From: Halogeometricum borinquense DSM 11551
GTDB lineage: Archaea > Halobacteriota > Halobacteria > Halobacteriales > Haloferacaceae
Direction of reading: 5' to 3'
DNA: 32,000 nucleotides
Assembly (NCBI RefSeq): GCF_000172995.2
Contig: NC_014729.1
Location: forward strand, 690,001 to 722,000
Both the position numbers and the translations under genes were made by a program. Under the pieces are notes generated by a model. The model saw only the letters and a program-made list of their open reading frames with translations, made no database searches and was not told where the DNA came from. Shown one piece after another: positions 15,220 through 31,091 of this stretch (the stretch's first letter is position 1; every line of letters begins with the position of its first letter).

Positions 15220-15507
15220 GTCTTATTCGTGTGTATTTTGTCATGTCTTGCTTGTGTATTATATTTGCCTCATTTTCCCGAACAATGATATGCTAAAGCT
15301 AGGTCGATCAGACGACGAACACAAATATATAATGGTTGATTCTTTTTGGAGCTATGATGCCCAAACCACACGAATGAGCGATTCTATAGACTATATATCA
15401 GAACAATTATCATCTGTGTTGAACAGACTGCTCCTGGTGAAGATATGTCAGAATGTATTCTTCTCTTCAATTACTATCAGAACTCACACTGTTTTGGGCC
15501 CCGCGTC

Positions 15508-16329
15508 TCAGTCGTCGCTGAAACTCGACAGCGTGAGCGGTTCCGCCTCATCCCAGCGTGGGTCGAACATCTCGCGGATGTCGGTGGCGAACTCGGCGTC
15601 CTTGAGGTCTATCATCGCAAACGCCTCGCCGGGGTCGAGCGGGTTCGGCACTTCGATACACACTTCGACATCGTCGATGAGGTTGAACGTCCCCGACAGT
15701 TGTTCTGTCGTTCGGACCTCGAACTGCGGGTGATTCTCCAAGCGCGTGACGTAGCGCTTGCCGACCGTTTTCGGCAGCGACGCGACGAGGTCGGGAGACA
15801 TCAACACCGACACGTTGACGCCGCGGTCCAGTGCGGCTTCCAGTTCTTCGGTGATGAGTTCACCGACGCGTCCGATGTCGAACTGCGGTGAGAGCGTCCC
15901 GGCGACGATGACGAGCGAACTGTCGGCCGCCGAGAGCCGTTCGAGTAACAGGTCTACGGACTCTTCCATCCCAACAGCGGCGGTCCAGAACTGCCCCTGA
16001 ACGGGTTCTGCTGTCTCCAGTTCGTCGGTGAGGTCGTCAACGACGGCCTGGTACTGTTCGGCTTTCTCCTCTAACTCCCGGTGTTTCGTCTCTAAAAGTC
16101 GGTCCAACGCGGTGTCGGGTTCGACCGCGACGTACTTCTTCGGACGACTCGCCGCTTGACTCCGCACGAGACTGTGCTGTTCGAGACTGTTCAGCACGTC
16201 GTAGATGCGTCCCATCGGCACGTCGCTGGCACGGGACAGTTCTTTCGCCGTTGTCGCGCCCGTCCGTAACAACGAGCGATATGCTCGCGCCTCATACTCA
16301 GATAATCCGAGGTCCCGCAGACTAGCCAT
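15508..16329 (-). CDS. TrmB family transcriptional regulator
   Basis: MASLRDLGLSEYEARAYRSLLRTGATTAKELSRASDVPMGRIYDVLNSLEQHSLV is the canonical TrmB N-terminal wHTH. Confidence 0.92.
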   Translation of the reverse strand: MASLRDLGLSEYEARAYRSLLRTGATTAKELSRASDVPMGRIYDVLNSLEQHSLVRSQAASRPKKYVAVEPDTALDRLLETKHRELEEKAEQYQAVVDDLTDELETAEPVQGQFWTAAVGMEESVDLLLERLSAADSSLVIVAGTLSPQFDIGRVGELITEELEAALDRGVNVSVLMSPDLVASLPKTVGKRYVTRLENHPQFEVRTTEQLSGTFNLIDDVEVCIEVPNPLDPGEAFAMIDLKDAEFATDIREMFDPRWDEAEPLTLSSFSDD

Positions 16330-16416
16330 AGTAGTACCACAGGTCCCACGGTTAAAAACAAAACGGGAGTTTACACATTCTGCTGGTTCACGAGTGACAC
16401 CCTATCGAGGGGCGTC

Positions 16417-18057
16417 TCACACGCCGTCTGTGATATCTGAGACGGCGGTCATCAACTGCTCAGGTGTGGTGACCGTCCGTTCGCGGTCACCGAGGCTGAC
16501 GACTGCTTCGGAAGCCGAAACACCGTCGGCGTCGGGGACGACGACTTTCTCGTGGTCAGCGACGCGCAGGGCCGCACGGTGAAGGTCCGATCCTGCTGTC
16601 GCGCCGACAGCGACGACAAGCGTCGGACGCGTTACTCGTGCTGCGACTGATCCGTATCCGGCGACTTGGACGCCGATTCGGTCCCACGCACCCGCGAACG
16701 CGCCGATTGCTTCCTGTGCTGCGTCTTCGTATGGTTCCTCGCCCGTCGCCGCCGCGAGGTCACAGAGTGCGTTCGCCATCTCGACGTTCGCATCCAGCGG
16801 TCGAAGCGGCCGGTCGAGCAGTCCGGAACCCGACGCCAAGCCGTCTCTGAACGCACCGCCGTCCGCTTTGAGTTCGTCGATAGCCACGTCCGCAACGGCC
16901 TGTGCCCGGTCGAGGTACCAGTCGTCACCGAGGACCTGTCGTGCCCGGACGAACGCACTGACTGTCCGCGCGTGGTCTTCGAGGAGGTGTGTCTCGCCTG
17001 TTGTCTCGCCCGCGTCGAAATGCGTCACGTCCCCGTCATCGATGAGTCGCGTGTCGAGGAAGTCGAGCGTTCGAACCGCGTAGTCGCGGGCGGTGCCGTC
17101 GTCGGTGTACGCGGTGAGCGTCAAGAGGGCGTCGGCGGCGAGTGCGTTCGCACCCGCGTAGGCCGTCAGGTCTCGACGCGGTCCGGCGCTCTCCGCGCGC
17201 TCTTCGGCGGTCTGTCCGTAGTAGTTCTCGTCGCCGGGACCGACACTGCCGCCGAACGCCGCCCCGTTCCAGAGGCGGTCGGCGAGGAAGTCGCGGGTCT
17301 CCATCGCTGGGTTGAGGAGGTCATCGTCGCCCGTATAGAGGTAGCCGTTGGCGAACGCGCGCACGAGGGCGGCGTTCGAGTCGAGCAGTTTCTCGTGGTG
17401 TGGGTCCGACCAGTCGCGCCCGTCGGCGTAGCGGAAGAACCCGCCTTCCACGTCGTCAAATAGGGTTTCGGCTATCGTCCGGAGCGTCTCCACCGCCTGC
17501 CGCCGGGATCGTTTCAGGGCGAACTCTATCGTTCGCGGCATCGGGAACTTCGTCCCGTCACCCCATCCGGCGAAGCGGTCGTCGTATTTCTCGTCGAGTT
17601 GTCCGGCGAGGTGTTCTTCGATGTGCGACTCGACGGGACCTTCGGGCGTCGGGTCGTCTGCGAGCGCGCGCGGCACACGGCCGGACGAGTCGCCCTTCTC
17701 GGACCACGTCTCGCGCACTCGGTCGAGCACCTGCCGCATCCCGTCGGGACCGAGATACATCGCTCCCGTGATGAGTTCGCCCGACGGCGTACAGAATACT
17801 GTCGAGGGGAACCCGCCCATGTTGTAGCGTTCGCGGACGCGCGGATGACGGTCTACGTCCACTCGGACGGGGACGAAGTCGTCGTTCACGTTCGCGGCGA
17901 TGCGCGGTTCGCCGTACGTCTCGACATCCATCTCGTGACACCCGTCGCACCATGTCGCCGTAAGCGACAGCAACACGGGTTTCTCGTCCGCTCGGGCCTC
18001 CTCGAACGCCTCCGGTCCCCACTTGTGCCACTCGACGCGCGTCTCGTCGTCCGTCAT
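16417..18057 (-). CDS. Thioredoxin-domain protein (DUF255 / YyaL-like, with a C-terminal six-hairpin glycosidase-like domain)
   Basis: 546 aa with VEWHKWGPEAFEEARADEKPVLLSLTATWCDGCHEMDVETY... Confidence 0.9.
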   Translation of the reverse strand: MTDDETRVEWHKWGPEAFEEARADEKPVLLSLTATWCDGCHEMDVETYGEPRIAANVNDDFVPVRVDVDRHPRVRERYNMGGFPSTVFCTPSGELITGAMYLGPDGMRQVLDRVRETWSEKGDSSGRVPRALADDPTPEGPVESHIEEHLAGQLDEKYDDRFAGWGDGTKFPMPRTIEFALKRSRRQAVETLRTIAETLFDDVEGGFFRYADGRDWSDPHHEKLLDSNAALVRAFANGYLYTGDDDLLNPAMETRDFLADRLWNGAAFGGSVGPGDENYYGQTAEERAESAGPRRDLTAYAGANALAADALLTLTAYTDDGTARDYAVRTLDFLDTRLIDDGDVTHFDAGETTGETHLLEDHARTVSAFVRARQVLGDDWYLDRAQAVADVAIDELKADGGAFRDGLASGSGLLDRPLRPLDANVEMANALCDLAAATGEEPYEDAAQEAIGAFAGAWDRIGVQVAGYGSVAARVTRPTLVVAVGATAGSDLHRAALRVADHEKVVVPDADGVSASEAVVSLGDRERTVTTPEQLMTAVSDITDGV

Positions 18058-18634: not shown

Positions 18635-18838
18635 CGCGCGCGGTCTGAATTTCGCTATTTTCGTTATGACCTCATCCCTGTCTCGAACTCGGACGCTGCC
18701 GTGTGGGTATCACTGTAGCGTGTCTCCGGTCCAATCGCCCGCCGTGCGGCGTTCGTGACGCTCACTAACACCCGACGCCCCCGCCTCGAAAAGAAACTCT
18801 TAAACTAATCCTCGAACAACCACTGAATGCGCTCACCT

Positions 18839-18912
18839 GGGCCAATAGCTCAGTCAGGTTGAGCGCTCGGCTGATAACCGGGAGGCCCGCGGTTCAAATC
18901 CGCGTTGGCCCA
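18839..18912 (+). tRNA. tRNA-Ile (anticodon GAU)
   Basis: Cloverleaf folded by hand, 74 nt. Acceptor stem GGGCCAA/TTGGCCC, D stem GCTC/GAGC, anticodon stem CTCGG/CCGGG, anticodon loop CTGATAA (anticodon GAT), variable loop AGGCC, T stem CGCGG/CCGCG with loop TTCAAAT, discriminator A. No CCA is encoded. Confidence 0.92.
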
Positions 18913-19086
18913 TGCCCAGGACGGCCGGTCTTTGACCGGCCCCGTCTGGGGGGCTCAACTCCCCAGCCACCTAATTTCCGTACTTCACACTTCTGAGCCG
19001 CAGCTATTTCATCTTAAGTTCATTCACGGTTTGAACGGTGGTCGCCGCCGTCTGTCGATTCGAATAGCCGACGGAGGTGACCCCGC

Positions 19087-19326
19087 GTGACGTTCGCCCA
19101 GCGGAACCTCTCCGTAGGCGGGTTCTCGACGGAGAAAGACTGCGAATTCCGCTGTCCGCACTGTCGCGCTCGCTGTACTGAATCTCCTGTCAACGAAACG
19201 GAATTCGGACATCGGGACGGTTGCCCTCGGCGTCCAACACATCTGCCAACTGGCGGGGGCGGTGCGACCTATGAAGACATCCGCGGCGACGAACTCGCCA
19301 CAGATGGAAGAGGTTCCCGCGCATGA
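19087..19326 (+). CDS. Small Zn-ribbon-like protein
   Basis: 79 aa with CEFRCPHCRARC...HRDGCPRRPTH. The stop overlaps the next start (ATGA at 19323). Confidence 0.5.
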   Translation: MTFAQRNLSVGGFSTEKDCEFRCPHCRARCTESPVNETEFGHRDGCPRRPTHLPTGGGGATYEDIRGDELATDGRGSRA

Positions 19327-19991
19327 GCCTCGCGCCGTCCAAGCGCGGGGGCAACGCCGCTGAATCTACCGTTCACCAACTTGTTGACGGCCTCCGGTAC
19401 GTTCCGGACTCGGAAGCCGAACATTACGACGCCGAAGTTGTCGAACTCCTTTTACCGAGTGCCGACCTTCCGTTCGTCGGCATCTGTCTCCTCGAGGTCG
19501 GCGTCGCTGTCGAAATCAAGAGCGCCATGGCCGTCTACGGCCAAGCCCAGCGCCGCGGCCGCTTCCTCATCCGCCAATCGAAGCATATCGCGCAGGGAGT
19601 CGTCGAACATATCGACTCTGCGCGGTCTGTCGTCGAGAACACGCTCGAGGAAGCTGCTGACGATCTCGTGCGTGCGGAGACGTTCGGTGACGATGATCCG
19701 TGGAGTCGGTGGCTCGATCACTACGTCGAAGACGTTGAAGAGGGGGCGGGAAGCGGGAACCGCGACGTTCTGGAGTTCGGGTGGAAGCCGAGTGATCGAC
19801 ACGACGCGAAGCGACTCATCCGCGCGGGCGCGATGAAGTGGGCGGAAGTCGCGGGTGAGGATATGCCGCGATTTGCGAGGGAGTTTGAGGTTGAAATGAC
19901 GCTCGCGGATAACTCACGGTTCAACCTCGACTGGAGAGCCTTGAAGAAACTCCTGCCACGGAACTACTCGCTGACGCCGTCGCACGGCTGA
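19323..19991 (+). CDS. Hypothetical protein with an Hjc-like / PD-(D/E)xK nuclease-fold N-terminal signature
   Basis: SKRGGNAAESTVHQLVDGL...HYDAEVVELL...VGVAVEIKSAM...RRGRFLIRQSKH fits an E...D...E-x-K pattern as in archaeal Holliday-junction-resolvase-like nucleases. This assignment is an inference. Confidence 0.6.
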   Translation: MSLAPSKRGGNAAESTVHQLVDGLRYVPDSEAEHYDAEVVELLLPSADLPFVGICLLEVGVAVEIKSAMAVYGQAQRRGRFLIRQSKHIAQGVVEHIDSARSVVENTLEEAADDLVRAETFGDDDPWSRWLDHYVEDVEEGAGSGNRDVLEFGWKPSDRHDAKRLIRAGAMKWAEVAGEDMPRFAREFEVEMTLADNSRFNLDWRALKKLLPRNYSLTPSHG

Positions 19992-20474
19992 GGCGGGGCC
20001 TCGTGAGTGGCAACACTATTCGTCGCCTGTTTTTGCGGTAATCGTTTCTGCTTTTCTGCCGGTTCTGGTACTTGGCTGGAGGTTCTTGATCGGCATCGTC
20101 ATCGAGGCCGACGAGCGACTGCCTTCGAAACTGGCGGGGGTACCCCACTTGTCCGTTAGGGGTGTCGGTAAAGACCGACACGGACAGATTACCTCAGCCT
20201 TCGCTTCGCTCAGGCTTCAGATGAAACAGACGAAGCATGGTCGCCGCGCCTACTCGGCGCGGCTTGGCGCGTATTAGATGTAGTGTGAGCCGCCGTTTCC
20301 TTCTACTTGTCAATTATAGCTTATCTATGTAGAGAGAAGATACTCCTCACTGTTGAGGTAATCACTTGGGTGAAGGAGCGACAATTGATTGGTCCAAGTT
20401 CAGAGTACACGGGAAGTCTCCCAGGACATTTTCGTTCTCGTTTAACTCAGGAGAATCTAGTCTATCATATCCAT

Positions 20475-20507
<33 letters not shown>

Positions 20508-20798
20508 GATGACAAATATTGTCGGGAGGTATGCCAACGAGATTGTTGTCGTTTTTTGGATCTTATGACTTTTTAGCTAAGACCTTGCCCGGAATTGCAT
20601 TCGTTGTAGGAATATTTCCATTATGTTGAATTAATCCCCGACGTATCTGCTGAGCCGCCAAGAGTTTCATTGCTTTGGAGGCCACATAACCAAGGGTCTT
20701 CCACCGGATCTTCGAGGGGGTGAGTTTCCCGCTGGCAGTGTTCGCCTTCAGTCACAGCACGGTGACAAAGAAGACCGAACTGGCGTCAAAATACGATG

Positions 20799-21227
20799 TT
20801 AGAAGCTGATGCCGTACCCGTTCTTTTTTGCGAACTCAATGAGGTTAATGCACATCTCAATCGTTCGATCTACGATCTCCATTCGATCGTCGTCAAGTTG
20901 ATCCTCGAGGTTCTTGCGGGCAACTTCAAGTGACGTGACGAACGTATCGAGTCCTTCTATATCTCGGACTACTCCGTCCTCGTCACGATACTTGAATAAT
21001 ATCTCTGCTATTGATGGCTCTCCCGTATCTACTACCTGTGTTGTTGGATTTTTATAGATCATAAACACATCATCCTGCCGTAAGTTCTCTTTAAAGTGCT
21101 TATATTCGGAGATTTCATCGAGGGAGTCGTCGTATTTTGAGTTTTCAACATGGTAACGGTAGAACTGTTTACCAGTTGCAAGCGTCTCCTTCTCGTCAGG
21201 GACAACTAGTGAGAATGTACTACTCAT
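20799..21227 (-). CDS. Putative immunity protein for the orphan toxin tip
   Basis: 142 aa, low GC, starting 4 nt downstream of the orphan toxin cassette. No signal peptide and no recognised family. The role is inferred from position only. Confidence 0.6.
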   Translation of the reverse strand: MSSTFSLVVPDEKETLATGKQFYRYHVENSKYDDSLDEISEYKHFKENLRQDDVFMIYKNPTTQVVDTGEPSIAEILFKYRDEDGVVRDIEGLDTFVTSLEVARKNLEDQLDDDRMEIVDRTIEMCINLIEFAKKNGYGISF

Positions 21228-21231
21228 ATTC

Positions 21232-21984
21232 TCACCACGGGCTCACGCTTTTGGCTACTCTATACATCAGCTCAAGCACCTCATTGGTCCACCTGTACGT
21301 TTCAACTTGATCAGAGTCTATGTCTTCGTGTTCACCAGTGTTGTCCATTCCCCTCGGGACAATAGCACATGCCTCAGTGTTCGCGAAGTCGTCTCCTGAC
21401 AGATCCAATACGGACTTGTTCAATCGATCCGGATTTTCAATCTTAGGAACACCATTTTCGTCTTGAGGTATTCCTGAGTTCTGTATATCGGCGATCTTAT
21501 TTTCCGCTTGTTTGATCGCCTCTCTTGCATGATCGTCATTACTTGAGCCAGTTTTTTCTTCGACGGCTTTCACAACTTCCCCCTTCTCCTTGTCCATGAT
21601 TAGCTTGTCAATTTCTGGGTTTTCTTCAGTGTATACATGAAATCCCTTAGCCATATTATCGTGAGCCGGAACTACTACAAGTTCATCTCTCTCGTCAAAG
21701 TCCTTAACAAAGCTTTCAACAAGATTTTTCTCCGGATGTGACGAGAGAACTTCCCCAACGTCACCTTGGTCCCCACCGAGATCTTTGGGTGAGTCACCGA
21801 TTCTCCAGAGGTCCTCGAAGAACTCATCGTATTTGTCATCGTCTACGGTCTGTTCTAACTCAGCGAGTAACTCGTCACTCAATCCCATCTCTTTGAGCGC
21901 CACCAGTGGTGACGCCACAGTATCCCGATCAGGGAGGTTGTTCCAGCGGGGCATCCGCTGAACGTGCACGTCTGAGTGCTCCAT
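21232..21984 (-). CDS. Orphan (displaced) polymorphic-toxin C-terminal cassette
   Basis: The 250-aa ORF begins MEHSDVHVQRMPRW..., exactly the junction motif found inside the 635-aa toxin (...HRMEHSDVHVQRVPQ...). 35 nt are identical (21956-21990 versus 23829-23863). It has no DUF4157 module of its own, and the remainder is unique and low GC. Confidence 0.75.
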   Translation of the reverse strand: MEHSDVHVQRMPRWNNLPDRDTVASPLVALKEMGLSDELLAELEQTVDDDKYDEFFEDLWRIGDSPKDLGGDQGDVGEVLSSHPEKNLVESFVKDFDERDELVVVPAHDNMAKGFHVYTEENPEIDKLIMDKEKGEVVKAVEEKTGSSNDDHAREAIKQAENKIADIQNSGIPQDENGVPKIENPDRLNKSVLDLSGDDFANTEACAIVPRGMDNTGEHEDIDSDQVETYRWTNEVLELMYRVAKSVSPW

Positions 21985-21990
21985 GCGATG
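21956..21990. repeat. 35-nt exact repeat, copy 1 (junction of the orphan toxin cassette)
   Basis: cgctgaacgtgcacgtctgagtgctccatgcgatg is identical to 23829-23863. The flanking bases differ on both sides. Confidence 0.9.
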
Positions 21991-21998
21991 GAGTGAGA

Positions 21999-22766
21999 CT
22001 ATTCGCGTGAATGAATAGCGAGATCAGTGAGATGGTCCTCTTCTTCAAGTGTTGACTCCGATAGAGAGTCTGCAAAGAACTGAATTCTGTCTGGTTCCAG
22101 CTCTTCTTTGAATTGATTGAGACATGTAACAAGCCGCCCTCTATTTATTGCACCAATTGTAGTATCCTTGAACCAGATATCTGTGTCTGTATAGACGCTT
22201 ACTAAAATACTTGTCATTGGACTCGAATCATCGTAGCCATCTATGTCATGGCTAACCTCAAATCGCAGAGGATCAATTGAAGAGCTGCCAAGGATGTCGT
22301 CTTCATTACGTCTATTAACGACCTTATAGTATTGATCGTTCTCAGAACAAAGATATCGGTTTTCACCACTAATATAGAATTTTGTCAATCCCGACCCGAA
22401 CTTAACGTTGGAAACGATCCGTTGATAGCCATCTTCCGTCGTGGATTCGCTAAACTGCTCAAATATCTCTGATACGTCTAATCCATCTTGATCTTCATAC
22501 TCATAGCTTTCTGCGATAAGATCAGTGGACTCGAAGTCATATATCTGATCCAGTGATACCTCATTTGGGTATGTGAATTCTCCAACTTCTATGCTAGTCG
22601 GTCGATAAAAACAGCCAAATGCATCAGATATGAGTGAAATTACAGTAGTAACATTCTGGTGTGATTCTTGAACTGATTCTCCGACATCATCAATTCGAAA
22701 TGTCCATGATGCATCTAAGTGAGGATTTGAGACGATGAAATCAGTATTAGGGATCATTACTGCCAT
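21999..22766 (-). CDS. Putative immunity protein for the DUF4157 / PD-(D/E)xK-like toxin
   Basis: 255 aa, acidic, low GC. Its ATG lies inside the last codons of the toxin gene (minus strand ATGGCAGTAA, a 10-nt overlap). No family recognised; the role is inferred from position. Confidence 0.65.
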   Translation of the reverse strand: MAVMIPNTDFIVSNPHLDASWTFRIDDVGESVQESHQNVTTVISLISDAFGCFYRPTSIEVGEFTYPNEVSLDQIYDFESTDLIAESYEYEDQDGLDVSEIFEQFSESTTEDGYQRIVSNVKFGSGLTKFYISGENRYLCSENDQYYKVVNRRNEDDILGSSSIDPLRFEVSHDIDGYDDSSPMTSILVSVYTDTDIWFKDTTIGAINRGRLVTCLNQFKEELEPDRIQFFADSLSESTLEEEDHLTDLAIHSRE

Positions 22767-24664
22767 TGCACCTCATTTTTGTTTATTTTACCTGTGATAA
22801 CCTTGTTTCCGACCACAATACGGACAGCATCAATGGGTACTGATCCAAATTGGATTTTCTTCATTATGTACGATTCAATGTACCGTTTTGCGTCCTCTAG
22901 CGGCTTACCTCTCAATTCTCCTTTTTCATCAATAGGGCTTTTGAAATTTAACTCAACTATCCTTTCGTGATGATCAACATTAAACTCATTAGATACGTCT
23001 TCAATTTTCTTACTAACAGAATCAGATTCAAACTTGTCTATAGTCTTACCTATCTCACCACTAATGAAATCTTTATCGACGTATCCTTTCTTTGGACTCT
23101 TTTGTTCTGCCCAGATGGCTTTATTCCCCTCCACAGCCAAGATGTCAATTCGATCTTCCCTGTCCGGTTCCATCTCAACATATTCTGACTGTCTTACGTA
23201 TGCAGCGAGTCGTTCTGTCTCAAATGCCACACCATCAAATACACTGTTCGGATCGTTATTTGACAACGATCCAATTGAATCGTCACCATCAACGACTGTT
23301 GTTGCGTCCCGCTGGGCGACATCCATCGTTTCTTCGAGTCGGGCCAGGTACTCCAGAATTCGTTCTGACCCATGTCCCTCAGCGATCTCTGTCAATAAGT
23401 TTCGTCGCCACTTTCCAAGTGTTGCAGCATGGTACTCGGAGAAGTCCTCGACAGTAGTGCCCATTACTGCACTGAACAGGTCTGTTCCACGTCTCTCCGC
23501 AATTTCGAGGGCGGATGAATCACCGGTAGCGATCACCTGGTCCACAGCCGAAGCGTTTCCTTCAGTACGGTACCCCAACAAGTCATTCAGTTGTTCTTGC
23601 TGGTCGGATGAGAGCGATCCCGAGTCATCGATAGCTAGATCCTCAGCAAAGTCGAAGCCTCGGGGGGTATCCGTACCATTGGCATTCAGCAGTGCCGCCA
23701 AAAGTTCCGGGCGAAGGCTCTCTGAGCCCTCACTGTAAGACTCTAGTAACGCTCTAATTTTCTCCTCTTGCTCTTCGTCAATGTCGAACTTAGAGAGTGC
23801 AAGCCCCAATCGGGCCGATTGAGGAACACGCTGAACGTGCACGTCTGAGTGCTCCATGCGATGCACGCCGATTTTCCCACCTTGCATCACGCGCTGGGCG
23901 GTTTCTTCGGCTTCCCGCTCTAAGCGCGGGTCAGGATCAATCTCTAACTCGCCTTCTTGGGGAAGCATCGACACCGCGCCACCAGTTTGTTGGCGCACGT
24001 GCGCTAACTCGTGGGCGAGAATATGCTGGCCTTCAGCACTTGATGGATCGTATTCGCCGTGGTTGAACGCGATGTGATTCCCGACGGTAAACGCGCGGGC
24101 GTTGATATCCTCGCAAGCTTTCGCGGCCGATGGACCCGTATGGATGCGTACATCGCCCAGATTGTCGCCCATCCGATCTTCCATCGCACGCTGGATGCTC
24201 GTGTCGAGTTGCTGGCCCGGCGAGGAAATCACGTCTCGTACGGAGTCAGGCACGTTCGTGTCGCCAGCTTTCGACGCCTCGTGGTGCGCGCCGCGACTAC
24301 GCTGGACAGATTTAGCGTTCCGGCGTTCGATGTCCTTTGGGACTTCTGCGGGACGCTGTTTTTGCCGTTCACGGAACGCGCGCATGTCGCGTGGTTTGCC
24401 CATCGTATCGACGGTCATTCCCTCGTCGGCCCATTCTCGGACTTGACCTGCGCCGTGTTTCTTGGCCAGTCGCTGAATCTTCGTATCCAGCCCGTCCATG
24501 TATATTTCGACGCCGAATCGTGATTCACACTCTTGGGGTGTTAGCGAACCACCGCCACTCCGGCCTCGATCACGACCTGAGCCTCCCGTCAGCTCTTGGA
24601 TCGAGGGGACAGACGAGGACCGATCACCCTCACGGGTTCGTTCCTCTGTAGATCGAAATCCCAT
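22757..24664 (-). CDS. DUF4157-domain polymorphic toxin, paralog B, with a PD-(D/E)xK-like C-terminal tip
   Basis: 635 aa. The DUF4157-type signature is GQQLDTSIQRAMEDRMGDNLGDVRIHTGPSAAKACEDINARAFTVGNHIAFNHGEYDPSSAEGQHILAHELAHVRQQTGG. The junction reads GVHRMEHSDVHVQR. The C-terminal region FETERLAAYV...DRIDILAVEGNKAIWAEQKSPKK fits E...D...E-x-K. GC drops visibly 3' of the junction. Confidence 0.9.
   Translation of the reverse strand: MGFRSTEERTREGDRSSSVPSIQELTGGSGRDRGRSGGGSLTPQECESRFGVEIYMDGLDTKIQRLAKKHGAGQVREWADEGMTVDTMGKPRDMRAFRERQKQRPAEVPKDIERRNAKSVQRSRGAHHEASKAGDTNVPDSVRDVISSPGQQLDTSIQRAMEDRMGDNLGDVRIHTGPSAAKACEDINARAFTVGNHIAFNHGEYDPSSAEGQHILAHELAHVRQQTGGAVSMLPQEGELEIDPDPRLEREAEETAQRVMQGGKIGVHRMEHSDVHVQRVPQSARLGLALSKFDIDEEQEEKIRALLESYSEGSESLRPELLAALLNANGTDTPRGFDFAEDLAIDDSGSLSSDQQEQLNDLLGYRTEGNASAVDQVIATGDSSALEIAERRGTDLFSAVMGTTVEDFSEYHAATLGKWRRNLLTEIAEGHGSERILEYLARLEETMDVAQRDATTVVDGDDSIGSLSNNDPNSVFDGVAFETERLAAYVRQSEYVEMEPDREDRIDILAVEGNKAIWAEQKSPKKGYVDKDFISGEIGKTIDKFESDSVSKKIEDVSNEFNVDHHERIVELNFKSPIDEKGELRGKPLEDAKRYIESYIMKKIQFGSVPIDAVRIVVGNKVITGKINKNEVQWQ
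23829..23863. repeat. 35-nt exact repeat, copy 2 (junction inside the full-length toxin gene)
   Basis: Identical to 21956-21990. On the minus strand it encodes HRMEHSDVHVQR. Confidence 0.9.
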
Positions 24665-24689
24665 CTTTCTACCTGATTGACAGCAACCC

Positions 24690-24698
24690 CATATAATT
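24690..24698 (-). promoter_or_regulatory. Putative TATA box for a leaderless transcript of toxin paralog B
   Basis: catataatt lies about 27 nt upstream of the ATG at 24664. It matches in sequence and spacing the element upstream of paralog A (1240-1248). Confidence 0.45.
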
Positions 24699-24754
24699 CC
24701 TCTCCGTTCGAGACCGAACGTTTCTGTACGGACGAGGACAGTGCGTGAGCGCCG

Positions 24755-25138
24755 TTAGAACAGCGCAGAGAGAACGGCGAGGTCGTCGGCCGACGGCCAC
24801 GTGTAGAGCGCCCACGCGCCGAACACGTAGGCCATGAGCGGGACTTCGAGGCCGAATGCCCACGGGACCACGAACGGCGTGAGGAGTGCCCCGACCATCG
24901 TCGGCGCGAGGTTCGCAACGACGACGACGACCACGGGCGTCCCAGCGGGATAGTTGAGTTCGAGACGCGGTGGAACGAGTCGATCGACGAGATCCAACGG
25001 GCGGGTTGCCTCGATCCACGGCCACGCCACCGCAGCATGCGTGAGTTCGTGCGCGAGTACTGCGGGGAACATAACGAGCGCCCCGAGGAGATCGACGAGG
25101 CCGACATTCTCTGAATCCGTATCAGAGGTCGTCGTCAT
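24755..25138 (-). CDS. Small integral membrane protein with an HExxH motif (zincin-like, DUF3267-like)
   Basis: From the ATG at 25138: MTTTSDTDSENVGLVDLLGALVMFPAVLAHELTHAAVAWPW..., followed by hydrophobic helices. The ATG overlaps the stop of the upstream gene (ATGA at 25135-25138). It lies directly upstream of the toxin gene on the same strand. Confidence 0.65.
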   Translation of the reverse strand: MTTTSDTDSENVGLVDLLGALVMFPAVLAHELTHAAVAWPWIEATRPLDLVDRLVPPRLELNYPAGTPVVVVVVANLAPTMVGALLTPFVVPWAFGLEVPLMAYVFGAWALYTWPSADDLAVLSALF

Positions 25139-25811
25139 CGCGGACGAGCACCTCCGCCGTTCCATAAGCTAAACAGTGCAAGCGCCGCGCCGAACAGGAT
25201 CGACATGAACGCTCCAATCTTGGCCGCAGGCGGGAGGAACGGCATGAGGAACCCGCCGATCAGGATCGAAATCACTGCGGGGAGATCAGCGCGACCCTCA
25301 GTGAGGATGTAGAGAATCGTGCCGATCCCGATCCCGAGCATGGCTGGCGCAACCGGCCCAAGGAGATCCATGAACGGCTTGACGAACCCCGCCCACGCGT
25401 CGCCCTCTTTCCACGGATCGTCGTAGGGGCTGTCGTACTGTGCGACCGTACTCGAGAGAACCCACGCGACCTCCAGGAGAACCGAGGACGTCACCGCGGA
25501 CGCACCCCCGAACGCCCGGTGAACATGTAGATCACAAATAGACCCATTGACCACGTGAGTGGCGACGCGATCATAACCGCACCCCACGACGGAAGGCCCG
25601 CATTGACGAGCATATCCGCTAAGGCGTATATCAATACGAACGACGAAACGACCTCGTCAGTACCGGAGATCGTCGCAACTGACGCGAGCGACGACCCGCC
25701 GAAGTCGAAAGTCTTTGACGCCGCGTTGACGCATCTTACCGAGTCCGAGGAGAATCTGCAGGACGTTCGTGTCAAGTACTCGCCCCAGATGGTGAAGGAC
25801 TGCTGTAACAC
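25135..25811 (-). pseudogene. Multi-pass membrane protein gene, apparently split by a 1-nt frameshift at a G5/C5 run
   Basis: ORFs 25491..25811 and 25135..25587 overlap by 97 nt on the same strand and are offset by one frame. The downstream ORF has only a GTG start far upstream of its hydrophobic core. Adding one G at the run ccccc (25506-25510) would join ...IYMFTGRSG to GASAVTSSVLLEV... The alternative is two separate genes. Confidence 0.45.
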
Positions 25812-25991
25812 GCAGGTTCTGGGACTTCGGTATCGGACGTCTGTTGAGAGTCGGTGGCGGAGATAAACCTTCAGTCTCGCACGAGGTAGTTTTATTCACC
25901 AACTCAACTATTAGATACTACTTTCTAGATTGGTTTTGGGAGTTTAGTCGGATTGTTTACTCTACTTGTGACAAATTTAGCTATTCCCTGA

Positions 25992-26822
25992 TTAGTTCCG
26001 TAGTTCCTTTTCACTGGCCAATCCATCCATGAACCTACGTCCTAAGTCAGATACCTCATACTGTTTGTACATATCCCGATCCAGCAGGCCCTTATTCAAC
26101 AACAATTCGCATCTTTTTTCTGTTAATTCTATGCTCTTTCCTACTTTTTTTGAAATTTGGTCAACCCTCTGTGCCTGATCTTCTTGTTGAACTGCTTCAA
26201 TAATTCTATAATCAATAACCTCCATCCATGGTATTTTCGTATGGGACCGAAGTGGACTGAGTCTATATAATCTGAGAAAATAGTGGGCGGTATGACGTTT
26301 CCCCTCAGTAGCTAAATATTTAAAATCTGGAAGTATTGTTGAGATATACGGGATAGATTGGTAAACTAGTGTGAGTACCAGAATCAATATTATGGAAGAA
26401 ATCAAATACGATTTACCTCCTCCGTAATATCCAGTTATCACTCCGGAGGCTAATCCTATGAACAATAGCAGTGTAGTAAGTGTAGAGAAGAATAGACTAG
26501 CATCTGTGAGCCGAGAGAAAGAGGATATCTCTCTGGCGTTGTAATCGGACCAGCCCGAATCTGCTCCTTTCGGCTTCTTGTGTGTCTGAGATACTAGAAC
26601 TAGAGTGACCGAGAATATCCACAGCAATCCACCAATAATTGTTGCATAAGAATTGACTGCATTAGAGACCGAGACTGACTTAATGTTCGAATTTGAAACG
26701 ACTGCAAGGGCAGTAAGAAAGGCAGAAATCTGGATTACGTTATATTTTTGAATACTGTCTAATCGGTCCATCAAATGCTCATACCGAGGGTCAACGGAGG
26801 TTTGATCCTCGTCACTTCCCAT
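25992..26822 (-). CDS. Membrane-anchored winged-helix protein (N-terminal multi-TM region plus C-terminal wHTH)
   Basis: 276 aa, low GC. There are about four hydrophobic helices (e.g. IIGGLLWIFSVTLVLV, SSIILILVLTLVY). The C-terminus reads VIDYRIIEAVQQEDQAQRVDQISKKVGKSIELTEKRCELLLNKGLLDR, which is MarR/wHTH-like. Confidence 0.7.
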   Translation of the reverse strand: MGSDEDQTSVDPRYEHLMDRLDSIQKYNVIQISAFLTALAVVSNSNIKSVSVSNAVNSYATIIGGLLWIFSVTLVLVSQTHKKPKGADSGWSDYNAREISSFSRLTDASLFFSTLTTLLLFIGLASGVITGYYGGGKSYLISSIILILVLTLVYQSIPYISTILPDFKYLATEGKRHTAHYFLRLYRLSPLRSHTKIPWMEVIDYRIIEAVQQEDQAQRVDQISKKVGKSIELTEKRCELLLNKGLLDRDMYKQYEVSDLGRRFMDGLASEKELRN

Positions 26823-26947
26823 AGAAAATAAATTCTGTAGTATTTTATATATGCTGTGATCATTTCTCCTATGAAACGGAAACTAAAATATCACCTCCGC
26901 AGAAACCTCCAGAATTAAGTCATTCTCAGTACAGTTTTTGATTGGGA

Positions 26948-27745
26948 ATGGCGACTCCAACGACTATTCCGATCAGCGTACTTTCTATCCTCTTGCTCCT
27001 AGCTCCGGGATTGGTAGGTCTTCAAATATTTTTCAAATATGCTCAGAGGAGACCTTCCCCATCACGTACTAAGTGGGTTGCTTGGAGCGCTCTCACCAGT
27101 TTAATTTCGCTTGTATTGCTCTATTTATTCTCGGGATTTTATTTACTGAACCTAAGAAGGATTGCCAGTAGTCTGAGTGGATTTCTTGGTATAATTTCTA
27201 TCAATGGTATTGAACTATCTGCCACAAGTGCTTTATTCTTGTACCTATCCCATATATTTGTTATATTCGTTGGATCATCTCTTCTTGGGTTGTTTGATCG
27301 AAATATTCTAAACAAAGACGAAATTCTTGATCCACGTGAGCCATGGGAATACGCATTTGATGAAATTCCGGTAGATGGTGAAGAATTAGATATCTATCTT
27401 CAAGATGGTGTTCAACTACGAGGAGAGTTCAATGAGAGAGCGTGGGATAGCTCCAAACGCGAATTATTCCTTGAAAATCCGTATAAAGTTGAATCAGATG
27501 GCAAGGGTGGACAATCTCTATCGGATTTGGGTAGAAGCATTTTAATTCAATCTAAGGCAGTTTCGCATATTGTGTTTGCTACTGAAGATCCCGACCAGAA
27601 ACGAATAGAATCTATTGAGGTCACTTCTGAAACAGCAGGAGAAATAGAAAACCTGATTAACGAAGTATTGACCCCTGACGTTACTGGCTATGAAGATCAA
27701 GAAAAGAGAGACAACAAGCAGGATGACGAAGAGGATGCGGATTAA
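26948..27745 (+). CDS. Hypothetical membrane protein with a soluble acidic C-terminal domain
   Basis: Low GC. ATG at 26948 (the track uses TTG at 26942). The N-terminal helices read ISVLSILLLLAPGLVGLQIFF, ALTSLISLVLLYLFSGFYLL and ALFLYLSHIFVIFVGSSLLGLF. The tail reads QEKRDNKQDDEEDAD. Confidence 0.7.
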   Translation: MATPTTIPISVLSILLLLAPGLVGLQIFFKYAQRRPSPSRTKWVAWSALTSLISLVLLYLFSGFYLLNLRRIASSLSGFLGIISINGIELSATSALFLYLSHIFVIFVGSSLLGLFDRNILNKDEILDPREPWEYAFDEIPVDGEELDIYLQDGVQLRGEFNERAWDSSKRELFLENPYKVESDGKGGQSLSDLGRSILIQSKAVSHIVFATEDPDQKRIESIEVTSETAGEIENLINEVLTPDVTGYEDQEKRDNKQDDEEDAD

Positions 27746-27746
27746 T

Positions 27747-28202
27747 TCAAATTTTGTCCACTATATCTAATTCACTTTTTTCGGTATAGTCTGGATATTT
27801 CTGATATACATACCGTAATAATCTATCCAAAGGGGTATCTTGATATCTCTTTTTTATACTCTCTGCAGCTTTGAGCACGTGGTCAACATCTCTGTTCTCA
27901 TCGTTTATGAGGGACTTGACCACTCTTCTCCCCTCATCAGTTAGTGAATAGATGTATTTCTCATTACCCGATACAGTAGTTTCAGTACGTCTTTCTATGA
28001 TTCCCTTATTCTCTAATGTCTTGATTGAACCAGCTAATGACGGTGAAAATGGTCCGTATTTGTCAGACTTAAATTCGTGTAGCTCAGAGATGTCTTTTTC
28101 TTTTTGAGTTAAAAATGCCAGCTTTTGAAAACGAGTAGCTCCCTCTATCTCCGCGTTATTATTTACATACATCAATGCCAGAGGGAGTAAGACATCAGCC
28201 AT
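27747..28202 (-). CDS. YwgA-like / Panacea(DUF4065)-like protein with a wHTH
   Basis: From the ATG at 28202: MADVLLPLALMYV...GATRFQKLAFLTQKEKDISELHEFKSDKYGPFSPSLAGSIKTLENKGIIERRTE...GNEKYIYSLTDEGRRVV. The K-x-Q-K-hydrophobic ... Y-G-P-(F/Y)-S pattern followed by a PadR-like wing matches my recollection of Bacillus YwgA-type proteins. Confidence 0.7.
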   Translation of the reverse strand: MADVLLPLALMYVNNNAEIEGATRFQKLAFLTQKEKDISELHEFKSDKYGPFSPSLAGSIKTLENKGIIERRTETTVSGNEKYIYSLTDEGRRVVKSLINDENRDVDHVLKAAESIKKRYQDTPLDRLLRYVYQKYPDYTEKSELDIVDKI

Positions 28203-28428
28203 TGTTTCTGATCTCTTGCTTCTTCTTATATAATATACTCCAACCCAGAGTCCTAAGAGTGTTGCTGTATCTCGATTCTTCGGATACACCTTCTGTCTGA
28301 GAAGCTCAGAACCACTTCCACCGAACCTTCACTCCGAATCCACGAATCGGATTTACTACAACCCAGACCTTCAGTCACCAGTACAATGCGTTCGAGCTAC
28401 CGGCACGCCAGGTCAGGGGGAGCCTGAA

Positions 28429-28629
28429 GTGGCGGAAGACGACGATACCGTACAGATAGATCGTTCGAACTTCCTCGAAAGAACGCGCCACACGTGCCCG
28501 AACGGGCATTCCGACTGGGATCCAACGAACTCACACGTCTGGTGTCGGACCTGCCAACGAATCAACGAGGGCGGGTGCGGTGAGATCGACCCGGACAAAC
28601 ACAAAAACGATTCACTGAATCCCGACCGC
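28429..28629 (+). CDS. Possible small Zn-finger protein (extent uncertain)
   Basis: MAEDDDTVQIDRSNFLERTRHTCPNGHSDWDPTNSHVWCRTCQRINEGGCGE shows a CxxxH...CxxC pattern. The open frame continues to 28893, antisense to the 3' end of the PRTase-HAD gene, so only the intergenic part is listed. Confidence 0.3.
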
Positions 28630-29625
28630 TCACCGCCCCCATCGACTGTACGACAACCGGCTCAGCGTGTAGTAGCCCTCGCTGAGGATGTACTTACTCG
28701 CTTTCAGCGAGAACGAAATCGGGTTGTCGCTGAGACGAGAGAGGTATTCACCGCTCTTGTCGTACACGCGGTCGAGATGACCCGGATTAAGCATCTGGTT
28801 TGCGCCGTAGCAGTGGACGGGCTTTTTCGAGCGCTCGCAAATCTCCGTGGCTTGCCGCATCGAGCTTTCGATGAACAGATCCGCGCCAGTTGAGCAGTAC
28901 ACATCCGCCTTGTACTCGGCGTGGTTGCCGTCCCGCTGCCGGATCTCTTTCGACGGGAGATCCATCATGACCAAGTTGTCGTACTCGATGCCGTGCCTGT
29001 CGAGCCATGCTTCGGTCTCGTCGCGGTACTTTTCCAGCCGGCACGTCACCAGCCAGCCGATGGTTTGGGTGGGGACGACCCGCGGTTCGACCGTCGTGAG
29101 AAACTCCCGGTAGCGCCGTCCGTCGTCGTTTTCCTCGCGCGTTGGGTCGCGGCAGAGGACGCCGTCGATATCGACGCAGAAGTTCTTGAGCATCGGGTGG
29201 TGCATCATGTTCCACTCGAACACGCGCGGTTTGCTGACGACATCTACCCAGTGGTCAACGTGCTTGTGCCCCTGCGAGGAGATGTACATCGCGCCGTACT
29301 CGATATCGAACGGGAAATCGTGTTCTGCGAGTTGGCGTTTCGTCTCCTGCATCTGACGCCCGGTATCGACGGAATCATCGACGACCAACACCGTCTCTAC
29401 GTCCTCGAACGAATCGACTCCGTCGTATCGACGCCCCGTCTGTAGGAGGCGTCCCTCACATAACCCCTCGATGTCGGTCATCGGCACATCGAGGTTCAAA
29501 CAAAGCAGATTCGCGGCGAGGAGTCCGCTTCTCGGGATGCCGGCGACCAGGTCGATACGGGTGGGGAGTTCCCGAGCCAGTTGGCGGGCACTACTGTTCA
29601 GCTGAGATATACTTCTGTGGTTCAC
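28630..29625 (-). CDS. Phosphoribosyltransferase (type I PRTase) fused to a HAD-superfamily phosphatase/nucleotidase-like domain
   Basis: 331 aa with a GTG start. The N-terminal part contains DLVAGIPRSGLLAANLL...ETVLVVDDSVDTGRQMQ, a PRPP-binding loop. The C-terminal part contains FCVDIDGVLCRD (HAD motif I, DxDxV), LVTCR, YKADVY and FIESS. Confidence 0.85.
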   Translation of the reverse strand: MNHRSISQLNSSARQLARELPTRIDLVAGIPRSGLLAANLLCLNLDVPMTDIEGLCEGRLLQTGRRYDGVDSFEDVETVLVVDDSVDTGRQMQETKRQLAEHDFPFDIEYGAMYISSQGHKHVDHWVDVVSKPRVFEWNMMHHPMLKNFCVDIDGVLCRDPTREENDDGRRYREFLTTVEPRVVPTQTIGWLVTCRLEKYRDETEAWLDRHGIEYDNLVMMDLPSKEIRQRDGNHAEYKADVYCSTGADLFIESSMRQATEICERSKKPVHCYGANQMLNPGHLDRVYDKSGEYLSRLSDNPISFSLKASKYILSEGYYTLSRLSYSRWGR

Positions 29626-29859
29626 TATAGCTTGTTCACATTTTGTGAGCGTATTACTCTAGCTACGATAACGCAGTTTAAGAGGCTCAATATCCTGTTT
29701 AGGGGGAACAAAATGTACTGTTCCACAGTGAAAGTGCTGAAACAGTCCCCGATTTTAATGTTGTCAGAAATACATAATTGTCTCTTGTTCACACACATCA
29801 ATTTTACTCGATTCCGTATCACAGTACTATTATATCCGCTAGCGTCGTACGATGCTTCG

Positions 29860-29988
29860 ATGCCCGAAATAAGCGTCTCAGATACCCTGTACCGCCAACT
29901 CGTCTCCGTCTCAGAGGGCGATGATTTGGACGAGACGATGTGGAAGATGGTGGCCCACTACGGTCGCGGCAACCAACCGGGTGACTGA
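29860..29988 (+). CDS. Possible small protein (42 aa)
   Basis: MPEISVSDTLYRQLVSVSEGDDLDETMWKMVAHYGRGNQPGD. Host-like GC resumes exactly at this ATG, after an AT-rich spacer. No family recognised. Confidence 0.3.
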   Translation: MPEISVSDTLYRQLVSVSEGDDLDETMWKMVAHYGRGNQPGD

Positions 29989-30111
29989 ATCCGCTGTAGG
30001 CGTTTCCGCACGACGATTTCTGCGACTCTCTTTTGGCACGTGGCCGTCGTTTCCAGCGGTGCCTCCGGCACGACGCGGAAATTATTTTTCTCGCGCAGTG
30101 ACAGTTAGAGC

Positions 30112-31047
30112 GTGGCTTCCTCCATCCCCTTCACCGACCGCATCGCAGACGGATGGCGACGCTCCGCCGACGCCCTCTGGTTGGTATTCGTCCCCGTCGT
30201 TACCGCCCTGTTCTCCGTAGACAAGATACTCCGTATTACCTTGATAAACCGGTTTCACGTCGGATTCAAGTTCCTCAACCTTCCTTCTCCGATAGAGTCC
30301 GTCTGGCGTTTCGTCAACGTCCCCCAATCCGGTGTTCACATCGATTCAGGACCTGCGATTCCCATTCTCGCTGTCTTGGTTCTCGTGACGATGTTTCTCC
30401 TCGGCGGCTACCTCGGCAGTATCCGCCGGTTGCTCGACGCCGACGAGGACCAGTTTGACTTCACTCACGACGCCTTCGCCTACCTCGGCCCGATGGCCGT
30501 CTGGGCCGCTGTGCCGTCGTTAGTGACCGTTAGCGTCGCAATGCTTGCGGGCGGGTTCGGTACCGTTGAGGGGAATACGCTCCTCCCATTGGTGTTTGTC
30601 ATCATCGCCGGCGCGCTCGTCTTCGGCTATCTGTTTTACGCCGCGCCGTTCCTCGTCGTGCTCCGCGAGACCGGCCTCGTCGACGCACTTCGCGGCAGTT
30701 ACCACCTTGCCGTCTCCGGCGGTCCGTACGCCTCGTACGCGCTGGGATACGTCTTTTTCTCGTTCGTCGTCTCCGGAGCTCTGTCGCTTATCGTCGTCAA
30801 TCTCGGTATTGTCGGTCTCCTCGTCGGCATCCCGCTTGGCGGCCGTCTCGGTCTCGCTACGACGACGGCGACGATGCGGTTCGTCGCCGACGTGGACGAT
30901 CAGTCACCGACGCTCTGTGAGTGGGACGATGGCGGTGATGATCCGTTCCAACAGAACGCCGGCGAGCAGGCATCGAACGCCTATGGGAAAGCATCGAACG
31001 CTGACGACCGATTAGGGGACGAGTTCGACCGCGACGGAACGCGCTGA
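30112..31047 (+). CDS. Hypothetical polytopic membrane protein
   Basis: 311 aa with a GTG start. It has several hydrophobic helices (AIPILAVLVLVTMFLLGGYLG, LLPLVFVIIAGALVFGYLFYAAPFLVV, FFSFVVSGALSLIVVNLGIVGLLVGIPLGG) and an acidic tail. Confidence 0.72.
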   Translation: MASSIPFTDRIADGWRRSADALWLVFVPVVTALFSVDKILRITLINRFHVGFKFLNLPSPIESVWRFVNVPQSGVHIDSGPAIPILAVLVLVTMFLLGGYLGSIRRLLDADEDQFDFTHDAFAYLGPMAVWAAVPSLVTVSVAMLAGGFGTVEGNTLLPLVFVIIAGALVFGYLFYAAPFLVVLRETGLVDALRGSYHLAVSGGPYASYALGYVFFSFVVSGALSLIVVNLGIVGLLVGIPLGGRLGLATTTATMRFVADVDDQSPTLCEWDDGGDDPFQQNAGEQASNAYGKASNADDRLGDEFDRDGTR

Positions 31048-31091
31048 AGTCACATTCGCCGTCTCACGGGTCGATAGGGGATGAGCGACGC

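Follow-up and report, generated by a model that had tools for sequence, protein, structure and literature searches.

The Hbor_07690 operon of Halogeometricum borinquense: a probable contractile injection effector locus with an orphan tip and two candidate immunity genes

This analysis concerns the operon of Hbor_07690, a secreted protein of the haloarchaeon Halogeometricum borinquense DSM 11551 that is probably a polymorphic effector of a membrane-anchored contractile injection system (CIS). The operon lies in a window of 32,000 nucleotides (nt), by which we mean the whole stretch of DNA that was analyzed. The list of open reading frames (ORFs) confirms four minus-strand ORFs of 635, 255, 250, and 142 amino acids (aa) at the positions proposed in an earlier reading of the DNA letters, referred to here as the original prediction, and the coordinates agree with the close packing described there. 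The toxin gene and the 255-aa gene overlap by 10 nt, which read ATGGCAGTAA; a gap of 14 nt separates the 255-aa gene from the 250-aa orphan, and a gap of 4 nt separates the orphan from the 142-aa gene. The features of the locus are as follows.

22757..24664, minus strand: toxin gene Hbor_07690, 635 aa; an ORF with a PF13699 match and published CIS-dependent secretion
21999..22766, minus strand: candidate immunity gene 1 (I1), 255 aa, WP_144018700.1; an ORF whose ATG overlaps the toxin stop
21232..21984, minus strand: orphan tip (CT2, or tip 2), 250 aa, ADQ66365.1; an ORF without the N-terminal module
20799..21227, minus strand: candidate immunity gene 2 (I2), 142 aa, ADQ66364.1; an ORF 4 nt past the orphan
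23828..24664, minus strand: conserved N-terminal module, aa 1-279 of the toxin; 75-97% identity in Halogeometricum and Haloferax paralogues
23829..23863, minus strand: junction copy A, encoding HRMEHSDVHVQR (aa 268-279); 35-nt exact repeat
22760..23827, minus strand: tip 1 (CT1), aa 280-635; starts after the junction
21956..21990, minus strand: junction copy B, at the 5' end of the orphan; 35-nt exact repeat
24691..24698, minus strand: putative TATA-box-like element AATTATAT

Exact-sequence look-up puts all four proteins on the DSM 11551 chromosome (2,820,544 bp). The toxin is RefSeq WP_244880403.1 and GenBank ADQ66366.1. The GenBank record starts at Met56 (580 aa), leaving the extra N-terminal stretch at 24500-24664 to RefSeq, which uses the 635-aa start. 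The 255-aa protein has a RefSeq accession only and is absent from the original GenBank record; its gene was therefore not called in the original annotation. Because the stop and start codons of the first two genes overlap, their translation would be coupled. The element AATTATAT is centered ~30 nt upstream of the toxin ATG and, judged by its letters and position, may be the archaeal promoter of a leaderless or short-leader operon transcript. It falls inside the block common to a second strain (GCA_040679015.1, below), since that block begins at 24705.

The 635-aa protein matches PF13699 (eCIS_core, of extracellular CISs; formerly DUF4157) over aa 152-229 (nt 23978-24211) with E=2e-31 and a score of 108.4 bits against a Pfam gathering cut-off of 22; the match spans positions 1-78 of the 79 in the profile. 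Its HExxH motif, HELAH, lies at aa 218-222, which bears out the DUF4157-type module of the original prediction. Besides this domain, the N-terminal module has a charged stretch at its N-terminus and a helical segment, EREAEETAQRVM. Pfam finds PF13699 alone in the 635-aa protein, and neither FHA nor RHS/YD repeats. Hidden Markov model searches of all four proteins against Pfam and NCBIfam matched only the toxin N-terminus, as anticipated for tips and immunity candidates outside any recognized family: the 255-, 250-, and 142-aa proteins gave no Pfam or NCBIfam match, and Pfam, NCBIfam, and PDB sequence searches with the isolated tip domains gave nothing usable.

A homologue search with the 635-aa toxin returned 571 matches. 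Among the best matches listed, alignments are mostly confined to ~35-50% of the query at its N-terminus, with 44% as the typical value, and ~280 N-terminal residues are common to many paralogues. Identity in this region is ~50-70% in Natrinema and Haloarchaeobius, and Halohasta too lies below Halogeometricum and Haloferax. Total lengths range from 366 to >1000 aa, and the tips of the paralogues are unrelated from one to the next immediately after ...DVHVQR. A few homologues end in known toxin domains, namely GH-E nuclease (PF14410), toxin deaminase (PF14424), and colicin D (PF11429).

An AT-rich region had been said to join the module at the junction motif; the drop in GC content in fact comes ~190 residues later. 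The GC fraction falls from 0.59 in aa 1-283 to 0.52 in aa 284-470 and reaches 0.40 only in aa 471-635, and the low value runs on into the 255-aa gene. Hydrophobic stretches are missing from all four proteins, which therefore have neither a signal peptide nor a membrane helix. The small ORFs had been described as acidic and devoid of both signal peptide and known family; the latter two points stand, and the first has lost its value as evidence. Housekeeping neighbors have isoelectric points of 4.5-5.5, similar to those of the small ORFs, and because they are equally acidic, as expected in a haloarchaeon, the acidity is uninformative.

A second DUF4157 toxin occupies positions 1-1212 of the same window (minus strand), starting at ~1212 and running off the left edge. 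It is 99.75% identical to homologue P0032, and its tip resembles a GH-E HNH-type nuclease (WHMGHKK...YQAE). Its N-terminal module is ~75% identical to that of Hbor_07690, and YRMHKADVHIQR is its junction sequence. On plasmid pHFX2 of Haloferax sp. S1W (L013), 4.5 kb separate another paralogue from a contractile sheath gene downstream of it at 15366-17090 (PF04984, E=9e-23; PF17482, E=3e-21), an arrangement also seen at locus L028. A megablast of the region against a plasmid collection gave only a 186-nt DUF4157 match on a Haloferax larsenii plasmid.

Tips and their downstream genes

Does each tip have its own downstream gene? A further 34 genomic loci were found, and tip/downstream-gene pairs were drawn from the window and 37 fetched loci. 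The resulting 25 pairs fall into 12 tip clusters, and homologous tips are followed by homologous downstream genes in 21 of 21 locus pairs, a measure of co-variation and of nothing beyond it. The junction is a fixed point at which one tip can be exchanged for another, and every tip type is accompanied by a downstream gene of its own. The pattern expected of related haloarchaeal genomes, a conserved N-terminal module with co-varying tip and downstream gene, is the one found.

The same relation holds between strains of H. borinquense. In GCA_004150395.1 (L002), where the flanking DNA is syntenic (98.8% nt identity across window 28625-32000), toxin identity stands at 95-100% as far as aa 440, drops to 78% over aa 441-520, and is only 31-43% over aa 521-635. 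The 255-aa gene is intact in this strain at 43% identity and the 142-aa gene at 64%; the orphan is deleted save for its last 25 codons. The last ~115 residues of the toxin and the 255-aa gene therefore diverge together between strains, and the hypervariable part amounts to only the last ~115-190 residues. In GCA_040679015.1 (L001), the complete block (20781-24705) is found again, at 97.1% nt identity and in another context, beside MCM and resolvase genes, with an orphan that is intact at 99.6% identity. An intact ORF follows tip 1 in all three strains, the 255-aa gene being 99% and 43% identical at the aa level. The toxin and both small genes are intact in strain CP048739 as well.

Tip 1 is predicted to consist of a helical linker up to ~aa 490 and a C-terminal alpha/beta domain of ~145-165 residues; its 40%-GC stretch is aa 471-635 (nt 22760-23254). 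This prediction comes from a single-sequence AlphaFold2 (AF2) model of poor quality (pLDDT 44.6), in which the alpha/beta domain comes after a long helical region. A word-indexed search of 5.8 billion proteins and a full HMMER scan of 1.84 billion representatives both returned only H. borinquense copies as relatives, and for this reason tip 1 is not assignable by homology. Its partner, the 255-aa protein, has no Pfam match, and a homologue search returned its own cluster only. Going by position and co-variation, the 255-aa gene is likely the cognate immunity gene of tip 1, and its product would be a cytoplasmic immunity protein.

The orphan is better represented. It aligns with full-length toxins from the junction Met onward, and the same tip type is fused to a complete N-terminal module in four other proteins, listed here with their identity to the orphan tip.

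P0003, H. borinquense: 66%
P0024 (Hbor_28990), same genome as the window: 71%
P0020, Haloferax elongans: 41%
P0100, metagenome: 35%

Residues P123, E124, D126, K127, E142, E143, K144, and Q159 of the orphan are invariant. The first ~100 CT2 residues are 88-100% identical among the H. borinquense copies and the last 150 only 44-72%; the variable part is therefore the distal domain, as in tip 1. At readable loci, a homologue of the 142-aa protein lies directly downstream of the CT2-type tip (59% identity at L037/L038, 44% at L011), such that the CT2/I2 pairing is kept in two genera. The 142-aa protein, like its 255-aa counterpart, is presumably a cytoplasmic immunity protein. P0003 and its partner end a train of co-directional genes (L037 and L038, 1-11992) that includes a 945-aa protein with similarity to tape-measure proteins (PHROG, E=7e-9), which suggests that the carrier of this toxin is a provirus or a tail-like element.

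What might the tips do? PD-(D/E)xK nucleases are common tips in polymorphic toxin systems (Zhang et al. 2012, PMC3482391), and a conserved D…ExK motif in both tips suggests, weakly, a likeness to toxins of the restriction-endonuclease fold (Tox-REase). Tip 1 has an E…D…ExK arrangement, with candidate residues E482, D507, E520, and K522 in the context AFE(482)TERL..RID(507)ILAVEG..WAE(520)QK(522)S, all of which are kept in P0002 from the divergent strain; tip 2 has D…ExK…Q, in which D126, E142, and K144 are invariant. In models of low to moderate confidence, the predicted order of strands and helices in both is compatible with a beta-beta-beta-alpha core, to which tip 1 would add a helix in front. 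The AF2 model of CT2, built from five sequences, has a pLDDT of 63.9, a pTM of 0.58, and a beta-beta-beta-alpha-beta core. Its named Foldseek hits are often PD-(D/E)xK proteins (BstEII, MGME1, CinB, a restriction-endonuclease-like protein, and cap-snatching endonucleases) and also include phage PD-(D/E)xK and DUF2726 proteins; none is significant.

Several results weigh against this assignment. The best Foldseek E-values for tip 2 are 0.048 (BstEII, PDB) and 0.008 (BFVD), with TM-scores of at most 0.3, and the tip 1 model gave meaningless Foldseek hits. Neither tip has a Pfam or PDB sequence match, and a profile-profile comparison of tip 1 with tip 2 found no relationship. The two tips have no significant sequence or structural match to any described family. 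A PD-(D/E)xK nuclease is the most likely identity for the C-terminal domain of tip 1, and tentatively so. For the two tips together, we regard it as a best guess and not a result, with about as much chance of failing as of holding, or slightly more.

A further family of downstream genes appeared in the wider set of loci. Proteins of 300-350 aa that start MKAVITGEND.LVGVNLRDNN..EH follow 9 different tip clusters in Haloferax, Natrinema, and Haloarchaeobius (L003-L036; for example, L003 11509-12459 and L013 11590-12567). They have no Pfam match and often stand in arrays, alternating with orphan tips that keep N-terminal-module remnants of varied length. They may constitute a large undescribed immunity superfamily.

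The junction repeat and the history of the orphan

How did a tip without a delivery module come to lie in this operon? As originally proposed, the third gene starts at the junction motif and has no N-terminal module of its own: its first codon is the Met of HRMEHSDVHVQR. At the DNA level, junction copies A and B form an exact 35-nt direct repeat, for which none of 100 shuffles of the window gave any match. Copy B starts 6 nt upstream of the orphan ATG, and the homology of the orphan start to the toxin is limited to these 35 nt. The repeat thus flanks tip 1 together with its candidate immunity gene. When the 1873 nt between the copies are deleted in silico, the N-terminal module is joined in frame to CT2 as a 519-aa toxin that is directly followed by the 142-aa gene. 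P0003 (517 aa) and its 143-aa partner are built to this design.

Most simply, an ancestral tip-2 gene would have taken in the tip-1/immunity-1 segment by recombination, and the old pair would have been displaced downstream. Recombination across the repeat could also run the other way and restore an in-frame tip-2 toxin. Of the cassette switching put forward in the original prediction, the possibility therefore survives by way of the 35-nt repeat; switching itself was not observed, and an orphan that is frameshifted or deleted elsewhere fits a displaced relic at least as well.

Has the orphan any remaining use? It comes just short of an even call, in our estimation, that it is a fossil left by the insertion, with no useful product and no switching, and that only the 142-aa gene is under selection. 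An orphan ATG that is simply the conserved junction Met, with toxin homology confined to the repeat, is what such a fossil would look like, and the orphan is truncated in CP048739 and all but deleted in L002, with the 142-aa gene intact in both. Yet the 250-aa ORF remains intact in DSM 11551 and in L001, and the repeat is exact and placed in frame, such that its collapse yields a complete toxin of known design. Moreover, with only 14 nt between it and the preceding 255-aa gene of this operon, the orphan could be translated. Orphan arrays similar to the orphan here are present in Haloferax and Natrinema loci.

Relation to the haloarchaeal contractile injection system

The original prediction held that such systems had not been characterized experimentally in archaea. 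This is outdated, since Zachs et al. (2024, PMC11566945) worked on H. borinquense itself and found that it kills Haloferax volcanii by contact through a membrane-anchored CIS, the "archaeal T6SS" (type VI secretion system). In a comparison of the secretomes of the wild type and a cis2 sheath mutant, Hbor_07690 was among five DUF4157 proteins secreted CIS-dependently, and the authors proposed attachment to the spike (PMC11566945). Hbor_02990, Hbor_38900, Hbor_38740, and Hbor_38760 showed toxicity in H. volcanii and were neutralized by their downstream genes (PMC11566945). Earlier, Zhang et al. (2012, PMC3482391) had named H. borinquense as a carrier of PVC-type polymorphic toxins whose C-terminal modules vary, and DUF4157 is one of the core eCIS domains and is found N-terminal to toxin domains (Geller et al. 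2021, PMC8213781). The literature thus already covers the system, its family in H. borinquense, and the secretion of Hbor_07690, and the locus is a tidy example of them, not a new system.

We consider it very probable that the locus is one of many paralogous operons encoding polymorphic effectors of the haloarchaeal membrane-anchored CIS, working as follows. The ~280-residue N-terminal module, with its charged leader and DUF4157/HExxH domain, would commit the protein to the injection apparatus, and everything after ...DVHVQR (aa 279) would be exchangeable tip. In tip 1, a helical linker would carry the ~150-residue C-terminal alpha/beta domain, a putative PD-(D/E)xK nuclease, and the translationally coupled 255-aa gene would supply its cognate immunity protein, as the co-variation suggests. 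The 250-aa ORF and the 142-aa gene would be an older tip/immunity pair, displaced when the tip-1/immunity-1 segment recombined in at the junction, an event that would have left the 35-nt direct repeat on each side of that segment. The 142-aa gene may have been kept as stand-alone immunity against neighbors and paralogues with CT2-type tips, such as Hbor_28990, and recombination across the repeat might bring the tip-2 toxin back. The element AATTATAT would drive the operon. The reading of the locus as a polymorphic toxin, already made from its layout, is supported by the conserved module, the tips that vary after a fixed junction, the co-varying downstream genes, and the orphan that is a toxin tip elsewhere.

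Some evidence points the other way. The expression test in H. volcanii that the original prediction suggested had already been published for the full-length protein, and it was negative: Hbor_07690 alone gave transformants and was not toxic (PMC11566945). The primers used amplify the whole 635-aa ORF, ATGGGATTTCGATCTACAGA ... TTACTGCCATTGCACCTCAT (PMC11566945). Hbor_07690 also stands outside the six toxin/immunity pairs proposed in that study (PMC11566945). The window contains no CIS gene. The main toxin of L001 has a 3' frameshift, and the orphan of CP048739 breaks off at aa 145, right at its VEEK motif; frameshifts of this kind in single strains may mean that parts of the locus are decaying. 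The small genes are kept in all strains compared, and toxin parts decay in individual strains.

Could Hbor_07690 then be CIS cargo that is no anti-archaeal toxin, being aimed at bacteria or eukaryotes, inactive, or decaying, with the 255-aa gene encoding a chaperone, an adaptor, or something unrelated? The protein is harmless in a host in which four sister proteins are toxic (PMC11566945), many PVC-type toxins lack immunity genes and may be aimed at distant organisms (Zhang et al. 2012, PMC3482391), one strain carries a frameshifted copy of the toxin, and neither tip 1 nor the 255-aa protein belongs to a recognizable family. We nevertheless think this quite unlikely. The stop/start overlap and a downstream ORF that stays intact in three strains even at 43% identity speak against it, and the distal tip diverges along with the 255-aa gene as the first 440 residues remain at least 95% identical, a pattern like that of toxin and immunity and not of a chaperone. 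Tips and downstream genes also co-occur across the whole family, and a single negative result in a heterologous host is compatible with a need for processing or with a host-specific target.

That the gene pairs are instead intracellular toxin-antitoxin or abortive-infection modules of a mobile element, unrelated to secretion, is a reading to which we give almost no weight: the block is AT-rich relative to the host, its relatives occur in varied contexts beside MCM, resolvase, and tape-measure-like genes, and the ORFs overlap or adjoin as two-gene modules, yet the protein enters the secretome only with an intact CIS sheath (PMC11566945), the toxin has the eCIS-specific DUF4157 module, the Pfam and NCBIfam scan of the four proteins found no toxin-antitoxin family in the tip or the three small genes, and the gene order is a large toxin first, with a polymorphic C-terminus.

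How does the Hbor_07690 operon, taken as that of a CIS effector, compare with known systems? It shares with the toxin/immunity pairs of the H. borinquense CIS the organism, the ~280-residue DUF4157 N-terminal module, and a partner gene immediately downstream; it differs from them in that Hbor_07690 is not toxic in H. volcanii, is not listed as a member of a pair, and has a 255-aa partner that is missing from GenBank. With PVC/eCIS polymorphic toxins it has in common a DUF4157 domain with HExxH at the N-terminus, then a linker, and a toxin part at the C-terminus that varies. Many bacterial members of that group lack adjacent immunity genes, whereas here every tip has a co-varying downstream gene; orphan-tip arrays are common in the haloarchaeal family, and the delivery machine of H. 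borinquense is membrane-anchored and acts by contact instead of being released.

The logic of CdiA-CT/CdiI and Rhs-CT/RhsI is the same, with a delivery part, a short junction, a variable tip, an immunity gene, and displaced orphans, and orphan modules in those systems, like the orphan here, keep only junction homology. The resemblance in layout noted in the original prediction is nonetheless an analogy only. There is no homology, the locus has no FHA, RHS/YD repeats, VENN, or PxxxxDPxGL, the junction reads ...R-M-x-x-x-D-V-H-V-Q-R, and delivery is by an archaeal CIS. Membership in the CdiA or Rhs families was rejected, since Pfam finds neither type of repeat and the junction, HRMEHSDVHVQR, has neither motif.

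Four things are new at the level of this locus: a co-evolving partner gene that was missing from the original annotation and left unpaired in the 2024 study; a second, displaced tip/immunity module accompanied by an exact repeat of the junction; diversification between strains that is confined to the distal tip; and candidate catalytic residues that can now be mutated. The orphan tip, the second immunity gene, and the 35-nt repeat receive no mention in the searchable part of the text and supplement of PMC11566945. Such detail could sharpen follow-up on Hbor_07690, and orphan-cassette arrays, being common in haloarchaeal CIS effectors, bear on strain-level kin discrimination in hypersaline communities.

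A more far-reaching picture can be drawn. In it, the 35-nt repeat would be a working site for an in-frame tip swap (635-aa to 519-aa toxin), both tips would found undescribed families of PD-(D/E)xK nuclease toxins, each with an undescribed immunity family, and the lack of toxicity in H. volcanii would mean either that processing by the DUF4157 module is required or that the target is specific to close relatives. Archaeal CIS effectors would then diversify by a displacement-and-orphan mechanism of the Rhs/CdiA type. All of this together we hold to be rather improbable.

Genomic surroundings of the operon

On the downstream side, an AT-rich spacer follows the 142-aa gene and contains a (TA)n run at ~20470-20527, and a tRNA-Ile(GAT) gene lies at 18838-18913 (plus strand), 1.9 kb past the end of the operon. 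Together with the drop in GC, the tRNA gene and the (TA)n run look like an island boundary; no att-like repeat was found. Between the two lies a 222-aa ORF (19323-19991, plus strand) that has no Pfam match. Its DNA matches PDDEXK_16-annotated fragments in L002, and window positions 19578-20266 match a 578-aa DUF7845 gene at its 3' end. This gene stands beside the toxin cassette of L001, and the cassette of L038 likewise has a 578-aa DUF7845 gene at its flank. The 222-aa ORF may be a remnant of an element that carries toxin cassettes.

On the upstream side, 3.9 kb (24705-28625) are absent from the syntenic locus of GCA_004150395.1. This segment holds two GC-rich small membrane ORFs, at 24755-25165 (with a HELTH motif) and 25135-25587, followed by an AT-rich block at ~25700-28300 (38-42% GC). 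The block encodes a 276-aa membrane protein that has a winged-helix domain at its C-terminus, together with a DUF6338 protein (26942-27745) and a PadR-like protein (27747-28289).

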